NCBI RefSeq assembly: GCF_019423705.1
Contig: NZ_JAHZAX010000005.1
Span: 9,832-33,831 of the forward strand
Direction: 5' to 3'
Source: Ruminococcus sp.
GTDB taxonomy: Bacteria; Bacillota; Clostridia; Oscillospirales; Ruminococcaceae
Length of the DNA stretch: 24,000 bases
The stretch's first letter is position 1; each line of letters opens with the position of its first letter. This document shows positions 2,815 through 18,091 of the stretch, one piece after another. The position numbers and the translations under genes are program-made. Below the pieces are notes generated by a model, which was given only the letters and a program-made list of their open reading frames with translations, did not search any database and was not told the DNA's origin.

Positions 2815-3789
2815 TCAATTCTGATAATCTATCTTCTCCACCGTGAGCATAGGATACCTGTAAAGCTCGCCGCTGTCAAGTCCGACCCTGTGCATATCCA
2901 CCGCCGATATCTGATGACCGTCATAAGTGGTGTAGTAATAAATGCCCTTGTCAGCGTTGCAGCAGCTTGTGTATATCGTTATCTCAAACTTGCCCTCAGC
3001 CACCTCGCAGCAGCCCCTCTGCTGATCTACCGAGCCAAGAATGTGGAAAAACTGGCTCACGCTCTCTTCCTCAGAGCTTCCCGAGCGTGAATTCATCTTC
3101 ACATAAGCCGCCCTAACAAATCTCGATTGTGACGAAAGATCGCCCGGCAGACCCATTGCGCCCATTCCACGGCTGTAAGCCGTAAGTTCCAGACCCTCGC
3201 CAAAAGTGTTTGCAGGCTGCTTGGGAGAAAGCCCCATAAAGTCTTTGAGCCTGAACATCTGCATATCAAATGGCGGATTGTTTGTGAGCACCCCAACAGG
3301 GTCGTCATAAACCTTGATGCCCTCTTTCACCGATTCCACCACGATACATTCGTCCCTGTCCGCAATTATCCAATGAAGCTGCCCAGCAGGCATTTGCGGA
3401 CTGAACGTCGTCTTTGTAATGTTGATATTCCCGATAAGCGCCCTCGCTTCTTTCACATTTGCACACTTGCTCAGTATCCAAGGAATAAACTCAAACTGCG
3501 CCACATTGTCCTTGCCCTCGATATCGTCACGATAATAAGCATTGCCCACAAAGTTTAGCCCTGCCATGCAAAGCCCTTTCTCGTTTGCAGCGTCATAAAA
3601 CAGGGGATACCCGCCGGCAACGTGTGCAACGCCTATCACCGCATAATGATCTGCGACCCTGCCCATATTAATAAAGTCCAAAGGGAACTCCCTCGGCATA
3701 ATAACTATCTCCTCGCCGTAGGAGCTTTCGTAATCGAGGGTTCGTCCAAAGTAAAAATCATCAGTCTTGTATGTTGCCGCCGTGCACAT
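2815..3789 (-). CDS. choloylglycine hydrolase family Ntn-hydrolase (bile salt hydrolase / penicillin V acylase-like)
   Basis: Begins MCTAATYKTDDFYFGRTLDYE, with the Cys2 nucleophile exposed after Met removal. Length is 324 aa. A GGAGG RBS is present. Family-typical segments include FGRTLD, NEKGL and NNPPF. Substrate (bile salt or other amide) cannot be told from the sequence. Confidence 0.85.
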   Translation of the reverse strand: MCTAATYKTDDFYFGRTLDYESSYGEEIVIMPREFPLDFINMGRVADHYAVIGVAHVAGGYPLFYDAANEKGLCMAGLNFVGNAYYRDDIEGKDNVAQFEFIPWILSKCANVKEARALIGNINITKTTFSPQMPAGQLHWIIADRDECIVVESVKEGIKVYDDPVGVLTNNPPFDMQMFRLKDFMGLSPKQPANTFGEGLELTAYSRGMGAMGLPGDLSSQSRFVRAAYVKMNSRSGSSEEESVSQFFHILGSVDQQRGCCEVAEGKFEITIYTSCCNADKGIYYYTTYDGHQISAVDMHRVGLDSGELYRYPMLTVEKIDYQN

Positions 3790-10045: not shown

Positions 10046-10114
10046 CGCCGCACCATAATATGCGAAAAACGTCGCAACTAAGCGCTTTTTGCAGTATGGT
10101 GCGGCGTTTGTCTT
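10046..10114 (+). terminator. long-stem terminator after the ABC operon
   Basis: CGCCGCACCATA (10046-10057) pairs perfectly with TATGGTGCGGCG (10095-10106), followed by TTTGTCTT. The interior can pair further. Confidence 0.6.
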
Positions 10115-10217
10115 GTAATACTATGGATAATGACGGCTTGAAGTTTAATTGTTACAAATATGCGCAGAATGGGTGTAATTATGTTATGCTTGTTACAACC
10201 TAAAGGAGGTAATGGAT

Positions 10218-10361
10218 ATGACAAACATCATCAAGAAGTACAGCACATTTATCGCAGCATTCGCAGTAACAGTCACAGCAATGGTCGCAAATTCAGCTTG
10301 CTGTTTCTGTATTAATCAGCCAAAAATGCCTGAGGGTTCAAAGAAACTCCGTAAGTTCTGA
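10218..10361 (+). CDS. agrD: AgrD-type cyclic-lactone autoinducer peptide precursor (47 aa)
   Basis: Too short for the ORF track. AAGGAGG (10203-10209), 8 nt, ATG 10218. The stop TGA (10359-10361) shares one nucleotide with the agrB ATG. Translation is MTNIIKKYSTFIAAFAVTVTAMVANSACCFCINQPKMPEGSKKLRKF, giving a hydrophobic leader, a Cys core and a Pro-containing charged tail. An in-frame ATG at 10212 is too close to the RBS. Confidence 0.8.
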   Translation: MTNIIKKYSTFIAAFAVTVTAMVANSACCFCINQPKMPEGSKKLRKF

Positions 10362-10942
10362 TGTTCTCAAAACTTGCAGATAAGGTCGCAGATATCGTTG
10401 TGGAAAGCGGCAAGGCGGATAAAGAGTCAAGGGATATCTATTCCTATGGCATAAACCAGGCTCTCACAGTCGTCCTTGATCTCGTCACCACACTAATTAT
10501 CGGTATCTGCTTCCATATGCTGTGGCAGATACTTCTGTTCGTCGGCGCATATGTGCCGCTGAGAAGTTTCTGCGGAGGCGTCCACGCAAAAACGCCACTG
10601 CGGTGTTATGCGTCCTCCGTCGTGTTGCTCATAGCTGTGGAACTTGCGGTGAAAAACTATATGCCAAGCGGCTATATCTTTATAGCGGCATATGTGATCT
10701 CAGCCCTGCTGATATTGACCCTTTCACCTGTTGAGGATCTTAACAAACCCCTTGATGACATTGAGCAAAAGGTTTATAAAAGAAGATCGCTTGTGATATG
10801 GCTTGTGGGATCGGTTCTGATCCTTGTGCTGTATCTGCTGAAATTCAAAACGGCCTCCCTGTGTATATTGCTTTCGCAAGCCGTGCTTGCAGTAATGCTG
10901 ATACTGGGCGTCATCAAGAACCGTGTTATAAGTGCGAGGTGA
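10361..10942 (+). CDS. agrB: AgrB family accessory gene regulator protein (membrane endopeptidase that processes AgrD)
   Basis: 193 aa and polytopic. The family motif LRSFCGGVHAKTPLRCY has His75 and Cys82 spaced seven residues apart, as I recall for the catalytic His77/Cys84 of S. aureus AgrB. Confidence 0.88.
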   Translation: MFSKLADKVADIVVESGKADKESRDIYSYGINQALTVVLDLVTTLIIGICFHMLWQILLFVGAYVPLRSFCGGVHAKTPLRCYASSVVLLIAVELAVKNYMPSGYIFIAAYVISALLILTLSPVEDLNKPLDDIEQKVYKRRSLVIWLVGSVLILVLYLLKFKTASLCILLSQAVLAVMLILGVIKNRVISAR

Positions 10943-10951
10943 CAATAGCGT

Positions 10952-11179
10952 TTGCAGCCCCGATCGACCCACATCTACAAATTCAGATTCAGCAAAAATA
11001 CATATAAAGCTGAGCGGGAGAAGCTAAAGAAAGTTCTGACAACACATAATATAAGGATAATAGATCAAAAAACCGGCGACGATCTCTGCTGTTGTATTAT
11101 CCTCGCAGGAAGTGAGAGAGATTTTCAGCGTGTGGAGAAGGTCTTCCGATCATTTGAAGATTTCCATATCCTCAAATGA
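10952..11179 (+). CDS. hypothetical small cytoplasmic protein (75 aa, TTG start), third gene of the agrDB transcription unit
   Basis: GAGGTGA overlaps the agrB stop, 9 nt before TTG 10952. That is the only start codon available after an in-frame TAG. No terminator separates it from agrB. The terminator at 11216 follows it. It contains DDLCCCIIL. I see no recognisable domain. Confidence 0.45.
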   Translation: MQPRSTHIYKFRFSKNTYKAEREKLKKVLTTHNIRIIDQKTGDDLCCCIILAGSERDFQRVEKVFRSFEDFHILK

Positions 11180-11215
11180 TGAAATAACCAATGCTAAGTA
11201 ATAATCCCCATATGG

Positions 11216-11258
11216 GCAAGTATCGCTTTGACCAAACCAGAGCGGTGCTTGCTTTTTT
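11216..11258 (+). terminator. intrinsic terminator closing agrD-agrB-orf75
   Basis: GCAAGTATCGC-(15 nt)-GCGGTGCTTGC gives an 11-bp stem with two G-U pairs, followed by TTTTTT. Confidence 0.7.
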
Positions 11259-11762: not shown

Positions 11763-12836
11763 TTATGGCTGGATAGTCCTCTCGTGTATCTCACGGGATA
11801 TCATATCGCACACTTTGTCAAGAGCCTTGAAATCCATTGCCGAAATGTAGTGATCTTCAATTTCGTCGTGGATCTTCTTGGCTTTCTTTATTGTTGCGTA
11901 AACCTCTTCCGCAAGATCGACCGCCGTCACCCTGTTGAGCCTGAGCCTTGCTTTCAGCGCCGATATCTTGCCCTTGTCGTAAAATCTCGACATATTGATA
12001 CATCTGTCAAAGCAATCAAGCTTGCTGATCGGCGTGTTCGCAACCAGCGCAATGCCGGCCTCGGGGATAAGCAAATGCTCATATACCGTGTTGTTGAATA
12101 TCACCGCAGGGCAGATGATAACGTCATACCCACGCTTCATCGCCTCTTCCGACATAAGCTTCACCAGCATATGTGAAGCCGCATAGTATTCATCGTTCAT
12201 CGCATAAACGTCAAGATAGCTCTCAAGGGTTTCCTTCTGGGTCATACAGCCGTATTCCGTCAAACAGGTGAGCTGCCTCATATCCGACTTGCCCTCGCCC
12301 GTGCCCTTGTTTCGGAATATCCTCTTTGCAAACCTATGTGCAAAGCCCTTTAGCTTCTCCACAAGCAAGCACCCCTCAGCGCAATTGTATGTGTCAAAGC
12401 AAACATTTGAAAGCGCCGTCGAAAATCTCTTCGACCTCGCTAATATCGATTTGTTTTTGTCCGTCACGTCGATTATCTCGTCCTTGAAGTCCGCAAGCTT
12501 TTTCTCATCCCAGTATTGCCCAAGGTTCACGATTTTCTGACAAACGCCGGGGTAATCACATTCCATAACGTGTGGCGCAGTTCCGTCGCAGATTATAGCC
12601 TTTGACCCGTGAAGCACCACAGCGTCCAATGAAGCAGGGTCGGAGGAGCAGTAAAACCTCGTGACGTGCTCCGTCGTCTCAAATTCGTTTGCGATCTTTT
12701 TCATAATGGACGATTTGCCCGTGCCTGCGCCCCCTTTAAGTATAAAGGTGAAAAAGCTTTTGTCCGCCATAATGCTGCGAAACTGCGTTGAAAAGCCCTG
12801 TGCGGTCATTGCGCCTAAAAAATATTTTTCTGACAT
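11763..12836 (-). CDS. P-loop NTPase of unknown function (resembles the Firmicute PRK06851-type 'hypothetical ATPase' family)
   Basis: MSEKYFLGAMTAQGFSTQF...FILKGGAGTGKSSIMKKI (Walker A), then CSSDPASLDAVV..AIICDGTAPHV. I chose ATG 12836 after GGAGGG rather than the track start at 12863. The family assignment is from memory of its N-terminal pattern. Confidence 0.7.
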   Translation of the reverse strand: MSEKYFLGAMTAQGFSTQFRSIMADKSFFTFILKGGAGTGKSSIMKKIANEFETTEHVTRFYCSSDPASLDAVVLHGSKAIICDGTAPHVMECDYPGVCQKIVNLGQYWDEKKLADFKDEIIDVTDKNKSILARSKRFSTALSNVCFDTYNCAEGCLLVEKLKGFAHRFAKRIFRNKGTGEGKSDMRQLTCLTEYGCMTQKETLESYLDVYAMNDEYYAASHMLVKLMSEEAMKRGYDVIICPAVIFNNTVYEHLLIPEAGIALVANTPISKLDCFDRCINMSRFYDKGKISALKARLRLNRVTAVDLAEEVYATIKKAKKIHDEIEDHYISAMDFKALDKVCDMISREIHERTIQP

Positions 12837-12994
12837 AAATTTCCCTCCTGATCCGAAACGCATAAATTATTGACCAAAGCGTTTCTGTTTTCAGTTTTAT
12901 AATATGTCAGAAAATCCCCATTTGTTCAAAAAAATCTTGAAGCCATATAACACACAATGACCGTGCAATACCATTCAAAACGTTGTGATCTAAC

Positions 12995-14145: not shown

Positions 14146-15171
14146 TTATTCAGTCGCCACGCTCTCGTCTGTCGAAGCGCTGTTTGCAGCCTCGTCAGAC
14201 ATATTCACGCAAACGATATATCCGTCAACATTGTTGCCCGAAATGGTATAAGGCCTCTCGATATCACCACTCGTCAAAGGTATCGGCACATTTGTCGTGC
14301 TGCCCTTGTCAGCCTCAACGAAGTAAACCGAGTATACCGTGTCGTCAAATGCCGTGAAGCTCAAAGGCTTCTCAAAGGTGTAATCTTTGACAAAATCAAT
14401 GTATTCCTCCAGCGTGAGCTGATTTGCCGTCATTATCTCAGCGTGTGGGATACCAACATATCTGAAATGATATGGCAGGGAAGCCACTCCCGTGATATCG
14501 CTCTTGTCCGCAGGATATCTCAGCACAAGGCCGTATTTCCAGCAGTTGTCCGTTATCCAGCTGTAATCGCCCTCCCCCGTGAATGACGAAAATGTTCCCG
14601 TGCTCGATTCATAAAGGTGCAGATCGAATGCAAGTCCCGTGTCGTGCTCATAGCAAACCGTGTCCTGCTGATCGTCGCCGCCCTCGCTGTCGTCCGAAGC
14701 CGTCGGCATAGCGGTGGATATCATAAGGGTCGAAAGCTTCTTTTCGCTGTAAAAATCGCAGCCCATCTTGTTGAATGCCTCAAAAGTCTTTTTGCAGGCC
14801 GCAAGCTCCGTGCTGCTCGTTGACATTATCTGACTGCCGTTCTTGTCAAACAGATAAGAATAGACCGTGTCCGTGTCCTCAGCCGTTCCCGTGAACGAGT
14901 GTGCAGAGTTCACAAGCACAAGGTCGCCGTTGACCATTGCTTCCTTGTTTTTGACAGTCTCGTATTTGTAATTTCCCGTAAGCTTTGGCGCAGCTGATGA
15001 ACTGCTCTCAGCCTTTGATACCGACGATGAGCTTGAAGAGCTGTCAACTTTCTTGACAGTCTTTGCGCCGCCGTCCGAGCTGCAAGCTGTTGATATCGCA
15101 AGAATAGTTATAAGCAATATCGCTAAAGCTGCCGCAATATTTTTATATTTGTAACGCTTTACCTTTGGCAT
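14146..15171 (-). CDS. VanY/peptidase M15 family D-alanyl-D-alanine carboxypeptidase lipoprotein
   Basis: The signal peptide has a lipobox (LAISTAC) and is followed by a Ser-rich linker. Zn-peptidase motifs are YEHDTGLAFDL (SxHxxGxAxD type) and LPYHFRYVG (ExxH-type region). Confidence 0.8.
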   Translation of the reverse strand: MPKVKRYKYKNIAAALAILLITILAISTACSSDGGAKTVKKVDSSSSSSSVSKAESSSSAAPKLTGNYKYETVKNKEAMVNGDLVLVNSAHSFTGTAEDTDTVYSYLFDKNGSQIMSTSSTELAACKKTFEAFNKMGCDFYSEKKLSTLMISTAMPTASDDSEGGDDQQDTVCYEHDTGLAFDLHLYESSTGTFSSFTGEGDYSWITDNCWKYGLVLRYPADKSDITGVASLPYHFRYVGIPHAEIMTANQLTLEEYIDFVKDYTFEKPLSFTAFDDTVYSVYFVEADKGSTTNVPIPLTSGDIERPYTISGNNVDGYIVCVNMSDEAANSASTDESVATE

Positions 15172-15233: not shown

Positions 15234-15322
15234 CAGAATCACGTCCATTTATGTGTACTTTTGTTACAACAGCCAAATAGCAATAAACCGATTTATGCAA
15301 CAAGCACAAATATTTTTCACCC

Positions 15323-15376: not shown

Positions 15377-18091
15377 TCAGTTTTTTACATAGTCCATAAC
15401 AGACTTTATAAACGCACGACCCTCAGCCGACTGCACAAGCTTGTCAAAGTCGCAAGCGCAAACAACAACCTTTCCGCCGTCCTTTTCGTATTCATAAAGC
15501 AGCGAAAGATCGTGGTTTCGGTCAAAGTTGTCGATAGTCCTAACGATAACGTTCTTCTCACCCTCAAAGTCGTCAAGTATCACAGCCCTTGAGTTCTGAA
15601 CGATCTCCCACCATTGCGGCGTGGAGTATTTCTCGCTTGCAAAGCCCTTGAGCGCAGGGTGTTCCTTGTCGATAACAAGACCCATAGTTCCCACAGGGTC
15701 AGGCTTGTTCATCATATGTGAAATAAGGCTGAACATATGATAGCACCAGAAGTCCTGACAGTAAAAACCCTCGATAGAGTTCTCCAGCTTGTCAAGCTGC
15801 GGCACGATAAGCACAGTATTGCCCTCGCCGAGAAGCTTCTGCGCCTCGCCGTTCACCTCGTCGAAAATATACGCACCCTCAAGATCGACCTTCTCAACTG
15901 TCGGTATCACCCAAAGCTCGTAGTGATTTCTCACGTCCGTGCCCTCTATCTCAATGCTGAGCACAGCCTTTGTGTTGCGCTGAACTTTTGGCAGCTTCAC
16001 CTCAATATCGCAAATGTCAGCGTAATTTCCGCCCTTGGTGTCAAATCCGCTCTCGCCCTTTGCAATAACACCGCCGCAGTCAAATGCCCACTTCACCTTG
16101 CCGTCAGTCAGCCCCGGCCTGTAATCGCAAAGCTCGATGTGCGCCTTGAATTCGCCCTCAGCTTCCAGCACATAGCTGTCAAATCTCGCCATAAGCACAG
16201 CGTCATTGCAGAACTCTCTCCATTCGCTGTCGGAAATAAGCCCCTTGCTGTCCATAAATGCGTCCAAAACGCCTACCAGCGCCGTGCCTTGTCCGCTGAA
16301 ATCCTGTATGTCAAGTATCTGGAAACCGCCAAGCAAACGTGATCTGAACACCGCTTCCATTTCCTCTTTATAGCATTGTACCGCCAGCTTGCCCGAACAG
16401 TCAAAATAATCTTCCGCCAGTCCGCCAAGCCCCTTTCCTTCAAGTCTCTCTCTGAAAATCTCGAAATTGCGTGCTTTCAGCGAACCCGTGTACTTCTCGA
16501 TCTCCTTGAAATTCGGGTAAGTCTCATACTGTCCTATCTCGTGTGTAACGATCGGCACTTCTGGAATGAAGTCAGCGTCCGCCTCGCTCGCCTTGACTGT
16601 TTTCATCGTCGTGCCGTACTGTATCTGAACAGTTCCGTCCTCAGAAACTTCCGTTGCGCTTGCCTGCTTTTTCGGCCTTATAATGTTGTCATAATCGTGG
16701 TCAGCACTAGGCTTGTCCGTCTGAATATGTCCCAGCGGAGCGTCACACATCGCATAAGAACCTCTTATGAGCCTGTCGTTAGCAAGTCGCACTCCAACAA
16801 AGAAATCGTCGTTTTCGATAACGTTCGGGAACCATTGGAAATTATTTGAACCCTGCGTGTAAAGGTGTCTGTTGTCAAAAGCCTTGTAACCGCCGATAAT
16901 ATCATTGAGTATCTTCTTTGAACCCCAAAGTTCATTGCCCATCGACATCATACAGTACGAAGGGTGGTTGCCGAAAGCTTTCAGCATATTGAAGCCCTCT
17001 TCAACGAGAAAATCCTGCTCTTCTTGGTTGTGGTTCTCCTCGCCCTCTTCGGTGATCGTGCCCCAAAACGGAAGCTGCGGCTCCATATAAATTCCCAGCA
17101 TATCCGCCGCAATAAACGCAGCCTCGGGCGGACAGCAGGTGTGATAGCGGTAATGGTTCATTCCGTATGACTTTGATATCTTCATCACACGCAGCCATTC
17201 CTCAACATCTGTCGGCGCAAAAGCAGTTTTCGGGAAGATCATTCCGTCGTGCTTTCCTCTGAGGAAAGTCTTTTCACCGTTTATGGTGAATTTTCCGCCA
17301 TCGGTCTTGAATTCTCTCATACCGATGATGTGCTCGCTGATATCTCCGTCAATGTCGATCTTCAGCTTGTAAAGGGCAGGATTATGCTCGCTCCAAAGCA
17401 GGCAGTCCTTGCCCATTTGGTAAACCGCTTCAAGCTTGCCGCCCGTATATTCAAATCTCTGCTCAGCAGGTGAGTGACTTTTCTCGCTGTTGAAACTCGC
17501 AGCGCTTATAACAGCCACGCCGTCGCCGCCGTTCACGATATCCGCCGTGACCCTAACAGTCTTTGCGGCGATATCGCACCAAAGCATAACATTTTCCGCA
17601 TAAGCCTTTTTGTATCCGATAAGCTCAATGCGTCCTGTAATTCCGTTCCAGTTGGTTTGTGTGTCGGGCGAGGTCAAATGACCGCCCTTGGTCTTGTAAC
17701 CAACATTTGAAACACAAATAGTCACCTGGTGAACACCGCTGCCGATATACTTTGTCAAGTCATAAATGTGCGGCGTGCAAAGGCTTTCACGTCTGCCGAT
17801 CTTACCACCATCAATGTAAAGTTCCGTTATCCTCGTCCGCTCAAGGAAGAGTTTCAGATTTTCACATTCCACCGCCGAGAAATCAACGTCTTTTCTGAAC
17901 CAAGCAAAGCCCTCAAATTTATATGTGTCTGTGAGGAAGCCCGTCTCTCTTTCATCGTTGTATTCGCCTTTTTTGGCGTTGGAAGTGGTGTTTGGCAAGT
18001 TTATAACATCGTCGAATACAAGCCCTTCGCCCTTGCAGTCTTTGTCAAGGCAGAGCTTCCATTCTCCGCTGAGATCAAGTTTGTTTATCAT
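15377..18091 (-). CDS. glycoside hydrolase family 2 protein (beta-galactosidase/beta-glucuronidase superfamily), cytoplasmic, 904 aa
   Basis: N-terminal sugar-binding jelly-roll signature is FEGFAWFRKDV. The TIM-barrel region has MNHYRYHTCCPPE and the acid/base motif MGNELWG. No signal peptide. Substrate is not assignable. Confidence 0.75.
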   Translation of the reverse strand: MINKLDLSGEWKLCLDKDCKGEGLVFDDVINLPNTTSNAKKGEYNDERETGFLTDTYKFEGFAWFRKDVDFSAVECENLKLFLERTRITELYIDGGKIGRRESLCTPHIYDLTKYIGSGVHQVTICVSNVGYKTKGGHLTSPDTQTNWNGITGRIELIGYKKAYAENVMLWCDIAAKTVRVTADIVNGGDGVAVISAASFNSEKSHSPAEQRFEYTGGKLEAVYQMGKDCLLWSEHNPALYKLKIDIDGDISEHIIGMREFKTDGGKFTINGEKTFLRGKHDGMIFPKTAFAPTDVEEWLRVMKISKSYGMNHYRYHTCCPPEAAFIAADMLGIYMEPQLPFWGTITEEGEENHNQEEQDFLVEEGFNMLKAFGNHPSYCMMSMGNELWGSKKILNDIIGGYKAFDNRHLYTQGSNNFQWFPNVIENDDFFVGVRLANDRLIRGSYAMCDAPLGHIQTDKPSADHDYDNIIRPKKQASATEVSEDGTVQIQYGTTMKTVKASEADADFIPEVPIVTHEIGQYETYPNFKEIEKYTGSLKARNFEIFRERLEGKGLGGLAEDYFDCSGKLAVQCYKEEMEAVFRSRLLGGFQILDIQDFSGQGTALVGVLDAFMDSKGLISDSEWREFCNDAVLMARFDSYVLEAEGEFKAHIELCDYRPGLTDGKVKWAFDCGGVIAKGESGFDTKGGNYADICDIEVKLPKVQRNTKAVLSIEIEGTDVRNHYELWVIPTVEKVDLEGAYIFDEVNGEAQKLLGEGNTVLIVPQLDKLENSIEGFYCQDFWCYHMFSLISHMMNKPDPVGTMGLVIDKEHPALKGFASEKYSTPQWWEIVQNSRAVILDDFEGEKNVIVRTIDNFDRNHDLSLLYEYEKDGGKVVVCACDFDKLVQSAEGRAFIKSVMDYVKN

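Follow-up and report, generated by a model that had tools for sequence, protein, structure and literature searches.

The question raised by a short open reading frame (ORF) in a 24,000-nucleotide stretch of a Ruminococcus sp. genome (assembly GCF_019423705.1, contig NZ_JAHZAX010000005.1, positions 9,832 to 33,831; hereafter the window, in whose coordinates all positions are given) is whether it encodes an AgrD-like autoinducer propeptide and, if so, what is to be made of a predicted five-residue ring, CCFCI, in which three of the residues are cysteines. To our knowledge, the AgrD peptides of gut Clostridia are almost wholly uncharacterized. The interpretation that we favor, with a probability of roughly 0.7, is that the ORF is a functional agrD at the head of an orphan agrD-agrB(-orf75) operon and that its product is cyclo(CCFCI), with three free thiols. 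Comparison with its relatives identifies the peptide as an ordinary member of the AgrD family and its three-cysteine ring as a rare extreme of a habit that is common in its subfamily.

Direct reading of the plus strand reveals a Shine-Dalgarno sequence, AAGGAGG, at 10203 to 10209, followed by an 8-nt spacer and an ATG at 10218, from which the agrD ORF runs to 10361 with its stop codon included. The TGA at 10359 to 10361 lends its last base to the ATG of agrB at 10361 (TGATG). The 47-amino-acid translation is MTNIIKKYSTFIAAFAVTVTAMVANSACCFCINQPKMPEGSKKLRKF, and codons 28 to 32 (10299 to 10313) read CCFCI. All of these elements are as the original prediction, made from the letters of the window, had described them. 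The product is divisible into a hydrophobic leader (residues 1 to 27, encoded by 10218 to 10298) ending in a conserved V-A-N-S-A motif; a predicted core or macrocycle, C28-C29-F30-C31-I32 (10299 to 10313), delimited by the translation, the alignment and column entropy of relatives, and its invariance across lineages; and a follower, NQPKMPEGSKKLRKF (10314 to 10358), which AgrB is predicted to remove and which carries the conserved residues at +5, +6, and +10 (counted from C28 as position 0) and a highly conserved KKLRKF end. An in-frame ATG at 10212 was rejected as the start: it lies 2 nt from the Shine-Dalgarno sequence, is without a counterpart in relatives, and precedes the first residue of the RefSeq protein, which begins at 10218. 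The ORFs in other frames and on the opposite strand over 10160 to 10430 were likewise set aside as short and having no homology behind them, and an Rfam scan of the whole window returned no match, so that no known RNA element overlaps the agrD ORF.

The peptide matches the NCBIfam model TIGR04223 (AgrD family cyclic lactone autoinducer peptide) with 40.3 bits against a cutoff of 19 (E = 2.4e-10), and the match, from residue 6 to residue 43, spans the entire 38-position model; this is the profile search that had been proposed as a check on the assignment, and it came out positive. Pfam searches with the 47 residues recovered no family at E ≤ 1, with the staphylococcal AgrD model PF05931 unmatched; the peptide belongs to the clostridial C-x4-HQP branch of AgrD rather than to the staphylococcal one. 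Other features expected of the family are also present: a small ORF in the same orientation as, and adjoining, a gene for a PF04647 (AgrB) protein, and a cysteine at the cyclization position within a short variable core that is followed by a Pro-containing charged follower. Together with the model match and the alignment described below, these bear out both the identification as agrD and the predicted layout of leader, cysteine-containing core, and charged tail. The gene had been thought to be unannotated; in fact, the exact 47 residues have a RefSeq entry, WP_295210367.1, under the name "cyclic lactone autoinducer peptide [Ruminococcus sp.]," found on 16 contigs, and a gene is also called at the same spot on a near-identical Logan contig. 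The partner AgrB is likewise catalogued, as WP_295210369.1 of Ruminococcus sp. By these matches, the ORF is a real, already catalogued agrD of a gut Ruminococcus.

Which of the three cysteines closes the ring can be approached through the relatives of the locus. A word-indexed homologue search with the 47-residue peptide retrieved only its own cluster, and no locus was confirmed when genomes were scanned with one AgrB sequence; a scan with a profile of AgrB relatives succeeded, recovering 80 loci in genomes of Ruminococcus, Oscillospiraceae, Lachnospiraceae, Clostridium, Tissierella, and others. The relatives of the peptide were thus reached via the ORFs adjoining agrB relatives, and a phmmer search over all small ORFs of those loci turned up 73 AgrD homologues, almost all of them immediately preceding agrB in the same orientation. 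The stop codon of agrD overlaps the start codon of agrB (TAATG, TGATG, or TAGTG) in 45 of 70 relatives. Given these roughly 70 related loci, the D-then-B order and translational coupling are the norm for the clade. One Ruminococcus metagenome-assembled genome has tandem agrD copies (2130 to 2294 and 2346 to 2501 of its locus) before a single agrB; both specify the ring CIYLT, and their leaders differ.

Analysis of the sequence conservation patterns across the 73 homologues revealed a fixed register. The position of C28 is occupied by cysteine in every one of them, position -3 is asparagine in 72 of 73, positions -2 and -1 are S/T and A/T, respectively, all 73 carry H, Y, or N at +5, and positions +6 (Q) and +10 (P) are each invariant. 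Column entropy reaches 2.3 to 3.1 bits only at +1 to +4 and falls to 0 to 0.8 bits at the flanking anchor positions. The hypervariable, specificity-type block thus comprises the four residues after the invariant cysteine, from which we predict a five-residue ring running from C28 to I32. The original prediction had given the register of clostridial AgrDs as ANS-x-C-x4-(H/N)QP-x-x-P and placed the macrocycle at C28 to I32, and the alignment agrees with it on both points: the register is verified on the 73 relatives, and the invariance of C28, with variability confined to +1 to +4, supports the predicted ring. The same prediction regarded the ring-forming cysteine as ambiguous, a view at odds with the alignment of C28 with the sole cysteine that is invariant in all 73. 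On this comparison, C28 is the family's cyclization cysteine, C29 and C31 occupy variable ring columns, and most of the ambiguity is removed. The rule for the subfamily, as read from these alignments, is that the ring is closed by the cysteine located exactly five positions N-terminal to the [H/Y/N]-Q motif.

The enzyme predicted to carry out the cyclization is encoded by agrB (10361 to 10942, plus strand), which is translationally coupled to agrD and specifies a 193-residue membrane cysteine peptidase/cyclase (PF04647, 138.5 bits). All 67 relatives keep both H75 and C82, with the spacing H-x6-C, and the counterparts of these residues are presumably the catalytic pair H77/C84 of Staphylococcus aureus AgrB. 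A PDB sequence search with AgrB found no solved relative and hence provides no structural rule for ring size. A further cysteine, C71 (10571 to 10573, in the context RSF-C-GG), lies four residues before H75; it occurs in all four CCFCI loci and otherwise only in one locus outside the clade (L053), the position being alanine in 58 of the 67 relatives. The joint occurrence of C71 and CCFCI reflects at most two independent events, and a correlation cannot be claimed.

The CCFCI sequence itself is strongly conserved. The lineage next closest to that of the window, an uncultured Ruminococcus (UMGS91, GCA_964328905), has an AgrB 55% identical to that of the window and the peptide MTSLVKRYSATIAALALGLTAMVANSACCFCIHQPKMPETAKKLRKF. 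The agrD genes of the window and this sister lineage share 72% nucleotide identity and differ by 15 synonymous and 13 nonsynonymous codon changes; residues 22 to 32 are the same in both, and the codons for C28 and C31 differ synonymously. Like the E value of the TIGR04223 match, this conservation of the peptide goes beyond what chance would give. The sister peptide is found on 96 contigs. Across 12 population variants, drawn from the two 90% clusters, the substitutions (A21T, A10V, T11A, K42R, P35L, and N33H) fall in the leader or follower, and the segment MVANSACCFCI is never altered. This pattern of substitution identifies the CCFCI ring as being under purifying selection, which argues against the locus being a decaying remnant.

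How unusual, then, is a ring with three cysteines? An extra ring cysteine was found in 18 of the 73 loci, or 11 of 55 distinct rings, with examples including CCFLV, CCFIM, CCFFS, CMCWI, CICFI, CICLI, CVCIM, CMCYA, CVYCV, and CIWCT. In the subfamily, extra cysteines are thus common at +1, +2, or +3 and never occur at +4 among the 73 loci; the one exception seen at +4 is a database representative, P0128, with the ring CCYEC. Cysteine accounts for 7.6% of the residues at ring positions +1 to +4, compared with 1.5% in long ORFs of these loci and 0.6% in the remainder of AgrD, an enrichment in the ring of about five times background as counted with phylogeny ignored. Position +2 is almost always F, Y, W, or C, and each of the three aromatic residues is one nucleotide change from cysteine. 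An exhaustive search of 1.84 billion representatives at 50% identity brought up 54 relatives, of which 53 were read; the closest identity among the 54 is no higher than 63%, and 8 of the 53 have an extra cysteine in or beside the ring, including the independent three-cysteine ring of P0128. If cysteine is as frequent at each of +1 to +3 as it is in the remaining rings (about 6%), roughly 0.6 of the 55 rings should carry two extra cysteines, against one observed. Since this frequency fits the per-position usage of cysteine, three-cysteine rings are best described as the tail of a continuous distribution and not as a separate class. The literature searched, on the CCFCI motif and the chemistry of multicysteine autoinducing peptides (AIPs), yielded no native or synthetic AIP with three ring cysteines. 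The view that a three-thiol AIP is without a characterized precedent may therefore still hold, but the more general claim to novelty does not, given the frequency of multicysteine rings.

The CCFCI clade differs from most of its relatives in what lies next to agrD. The usual order in the wider AgrB clade is an AgrC-type kinase (HATPase_c_5, about 427 residues), agrD, and agrB, and Pfam recognizes such a kinase in 43 of 58 upstream ORFs. With a profile made from the AgrC-like kinases of relatives, 62 of 83 related loci prove to have one immediately before agrD; the profile has no match in the window or in the loci designated L001 and L082, the latter being that of the sister lineage. A Pfam scan of the ORFs of the 24-kb window likewise recovered no histidine kinase and no LytTR response regulator, so that a complete agrBDCA circuit is absent from it. 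The CCFCI clade has an orphan agrD-agrB pair, with no kinase at the locus. Among two-cysteine loci, 12 of 14 have an AgrC-type kinase directly upstream; multicysteine rings thus occur where a candidate receptor kinase is encoded, and it is a further rule of the subfamily that they usually stand beside a cognate kinase. As a side observation, the order kinase-agrD-agrB differs from the staphylococcal order B-D-C-A, and the downstream genes are mixed, with a LytTR regulator in only three loci. Paired 9-bp repeats with a period of about 21 bp are the architecture of the LytTR/AgrA box. In most relatives (among loci L001 to L080), a 9-bp sequence is directly repeated, perfectly or nearly so, at a period of 21 to 22 bp about 95 to 120 nt upstream of agrD, and its sequence varies between lineages (e.g., two copies each of TTCGTACCA, ACAGTTCAC, or TTTCTACAA). 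In the sister lineage, the pair is TTGTTACAT/TTATTACAT, with a 21-bp period, at -96.

Several characterized systems provide precedents for parts of this arrangement. In Clostridium perfringens, the most likely signal is a tail-less CLWFT ring that precedes an HQP motif, and its receptor is VirS (PMC7492741, PMC12312760). That system shares with the window the C-x4-H/N-Q-P register, a predicted tail-less ring of five residues, a conserved Pro-containing charged follower, and a locus without agrC or agrA (PMC7492741; PMC12312760, Table 1), as is the case for some other clostridial agr loci (PMC12312760). The window differs from it in the two extra thiols of CCFCI, the overlapping agrD-agrB order, and an ORF for an ACT-like protein of 75 residues after agrB. 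The agr1 locus of Clostridioides difficile is listed as agrD1B1 without agrC or agrA, unlike agrB2D2C2A2, and its core, ANST[CPWII], has the ANS(T/A)-C-x4 motif in common with the window (PMC12312760); in contrast to CCFCI, its ring has a single cysteine, and the organism belongs to the family Peptostreptococcaceae. AgrD1 of Clostridium botulinum has a core, ACYWCVYQP, with two cysteines in the C-x-x-C-x-[Y]-Q-P frame of C28 and C31 (PMC12312760, Table 1). With two cysteines as opposed to three, it is a published precedent for a multicysteine core with an uncertain ring assignment. If the register common to the 73 relatives is applied to it, the ring may be A[CYWCV]YQP, and the printed bracket, ACYW[CVYQP], may be off register. 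Rc-AIP1 of Ruminiclostridium cellulolyticum (cyclo-CWFWSY) and the cyclic AIPs of Clostridium acetobutylicum follow the same maturation logic as that predicted here (PMC8251862), with rings of six residues and one cysteine in place of the predicted five residues and three cysteines. The agrBDCA system of S. aureus is similar in having an AgrB His/Cys peptidase-cyclase, an AgrD with leader, core, and follower, and a five-residue thiolactone between the cysteine and the C terminus. It differs in its B-D-C-A order, the exocyclic tail of its signal, and RNAIII; the window has the order D-B, lacks C and A, and probably produces a signal without a tail.

By analogy with these systems, we propose that the 47-residue propeptide would enter the membrane via its hydrophobic leader, whereupon AgrB, acting through His75 and Cys82, would cleave between I32 and N33, releasing the follower and retaining I32 as an acyl-enzyme thioester. 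Attack of the C28 thiol on this thioester would then generate the five-residue thiolactone C-C-F-C-I. The native clostridial AIPs detected so far are without an N-terminal tail, and an S-to-N shift converts them to a lactam with a free thiol (PMC8251862); because they lack tails, the leader of the window peptide is likewise predicted to be cut directly before C28. The free alpha-amine of C28 could thereafter drive a spontaneous S-to-N acyl shift, giving the homodetic cyclo(CCFCI), all three thiols of which would stay free in the reducing gut lumen. On this proposal, C29 and C31 would be ordinary specificity-determining residues of the ring and not alternative points of cyclization, and the receptor would be encoded outside the window, elsewhere in the genome, as VirS is in C. 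perfringens.

Certain observations weigh against this scheme. The cleavage sites and ring size of the agrD product are predicted by analogy to systems that include the six-residue rings of C. acetobutylicum and R. cellulolyticum (PMC8251862). With two further thiols in the ring, trans-thioesterification to smaller thiolactones before removal of the leader is chemically possible. In one alternative, C29 or C31 would carry the thiolactone, either from the outset or by migration, which would leave a ring of four or two residues; or cleavage would follow N33, and the ring would comprise six residues starting at C28, or five (C29 to N33) with one cysteine left exocyclic. In either case, the signal in its mature form would be another isomer or a mixture of isomers. 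The crowding of three thiols into five residues, the facile exchange noted for AIP thioesters, the six-membered clostridial rings (PMC8251862), and the review table that places the ring of C. botulinum at its second cysteine (PMC12312760) would all be consistent with it. However, C28 alone aligns with the invariant cysteine while C29 and C31 fall in hypervariable columns, position +5 behaves as conserved follower in all 73 relatives and not as variable ring, the likely natural signal of C. perfringens is a five-residue ring that excludes the His (PMC7492741), and a two-residue ring is sterically implausible, so that we consider a different regiochemistry unlikely. Another possibility is that the pair is decaying or has fallen silent, its agrC and AgrA-box promoter having been lost, and produces no quorum signal. 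No receptor was found at the locus, where most related loci have a kinase, so that this genome might make a signal that nothing in it senses; further, no clean 21- to 22-bp pair precedes agrD in the window, the best at 21 bp being a 6/9 match, and a promoter scan between 10107 and 10218 detected no sigma-70-like site. Nevertheless, the agrD and agrB ORFs are intact, with a strong Shine-Dalgarno sequence and translational coupling, the ring and processing motifs are under purifying selection in two lineages and many metagenome contigs, AgrB keeps its catalytic residues, and an orphan agrBD is functional in C. perfringens (PMC7492741). A decaying remnant is accordingly the least probable of the alternatives and, in our estimation, very improbable.

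The remaining alternative accepts a functional gene and asks more of its cysteines, which would add chemistry to the signal: the mature peptide would be a bicycle locked by a disulfide, a disulfide-linked dimer, or a tri-thiol that binds metal, and the signal would respond to redox state or metals. It would envisage a tri-thiol cyclic pentapeptide in which the extra cysteines are functional and the redox- or metal-gated signal is read by a receptor not linked to AgrC. Under such a model, the extra cysteines might permit thiolactone isomers, an O2-induced disulfide-locked bicycle, or metal binding, and C71 of AgrB and the ACT-like 75-residue protein could be part of the adaptation. The strict conservation of CCFCI in two lineages and on more than 100 contigs, the roughly fivefold enrichment of cysteine in rings of the subfamily, and the position of AgrB C71 so near the catalytic His, with L053 as its only occurrence outside the clade, are the points in its favor. 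On the other hand, Ruminococcus is a genus of strict anaerobes; because of this source and the presence in the window of a protein of the choloylglycine hydrolase family, which includes bile-salt hydrolases, we assume a reducing habitat, in which disulfides would be disfavored. Moreover, a single extra cysteine is common and occurs at +1, +2, or +3 without a fixed pattern, rings with two of them are about as frequent as predicted from per-position usage, a single mutation suffices to turn the F, Y, or W prevailing at these positions into cysteine, and no dedicated oxidoreductase or metal-related gene is adjacent. We therefore regard added chemistry as decidedly unlikely and give correspondingly little credence to a gated signal with its own class of receptor; if true, however, redox or metal behavior of a tri-thiol product would be a new property for an autoinducer.

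For the preferred reading, a functional orphan pair making cyclo(CCFCI), the practical value lies in the subfamily rules for the cyclizing cysteine, the extra cysteines, and the neighboring kinase, together with the orphan status of the clade, and not in a new class of molecule. The AgrD cores of gut Clostridia have been mined for synthetic signaling and antibiofilm peptides (PMC11953309). The rules bear on such prediction and synthesis, as multicysteine cores pose questions of regiochemistry and oxidation that have so far been met only in C. botulinum AgrD1.

Downstream of agrB, the operon appears to continue with orf75 (10952 to 11179, plus strand), which encodes 75 residues from a TTG start and has a Shine-Dalgarno sequence, GAGGTGA, inside the end of agrB. 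Its product is 39% identical to those of ORFs at the same position in L082 (5587 to 5814) and L001 (3087 to 3311), matches no Pfam or NCBIfam family, and retrieved nothing in a homologue search. A single-sequence AlphaFold2 model (predicted local distance difference test score of 78) suggests a β-α-β-β-α-β fold with weak matches to the ACT domain and the NikR C domain. Thus, orf75 is probably a conserved third gene of the operon, with a predicted ACT-like fold, and may be clade specific. A terminator-like hairpin at 11214 to 11254 (plus strand), with a stem of 17 pairs, of which 7 are G-C, followed by the T-run TTTTTGTT, ends the agrD-agrB-orf75 unit. A link to the downstream GNAT gene was rejected, as terminator-like and promoter-like sites lie between.

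Upstream, another terminator-like hairpin at 10046 to 10106 (plus strand), followed by UUUGUCUUG, has a minimum free energy of -33.3 kcal/mol (z = -4.3), with 0 of 200 shuffled sequences folding as well. It closes the upstream TetR/ABC-ATPase/FtsX-permease operon, fitting the terminator of the ABC operon that the original prediction had placed before agrD; a simple terminator scan missed it on account of its long loop and interior. A functional link between that operon and agrD was rejected, given the strong hairpin between them and the different genes found there in the sister lineage. Between this hairpin and agrD are two exact copies of TTGTTACAA on the plus strand (10149 to 10157 and 10190 to 10198), 41 bp apart and just before the gene. 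This 9-mer has three copies in the 24 kb, against 0.27 expected; the third, at 15261 to 15269, is intergenic and lies about 90 nt upstream of a minus-strand VanY-like gene (14146 to 15171). The copies may be regulator sites, possibly shared, or part of a promoter region.

Other genes of the window include three on the minus strand, for the protein of the choloylglycine (bile-salt) hydrolase family (2815 to 3789), a 366-residue P-loop protein of the uncharacterized PRK06851 group (11763 to 12863), and a 904-residue relative of GH2-like exo-beta-1,4-galactosidases (15377 to 18091). The choloylglycine hydrolase and GH2-like genes fit a gut Ruminococcus, and the block of genes from GNAT to GH2 is syntenic with that in L082.

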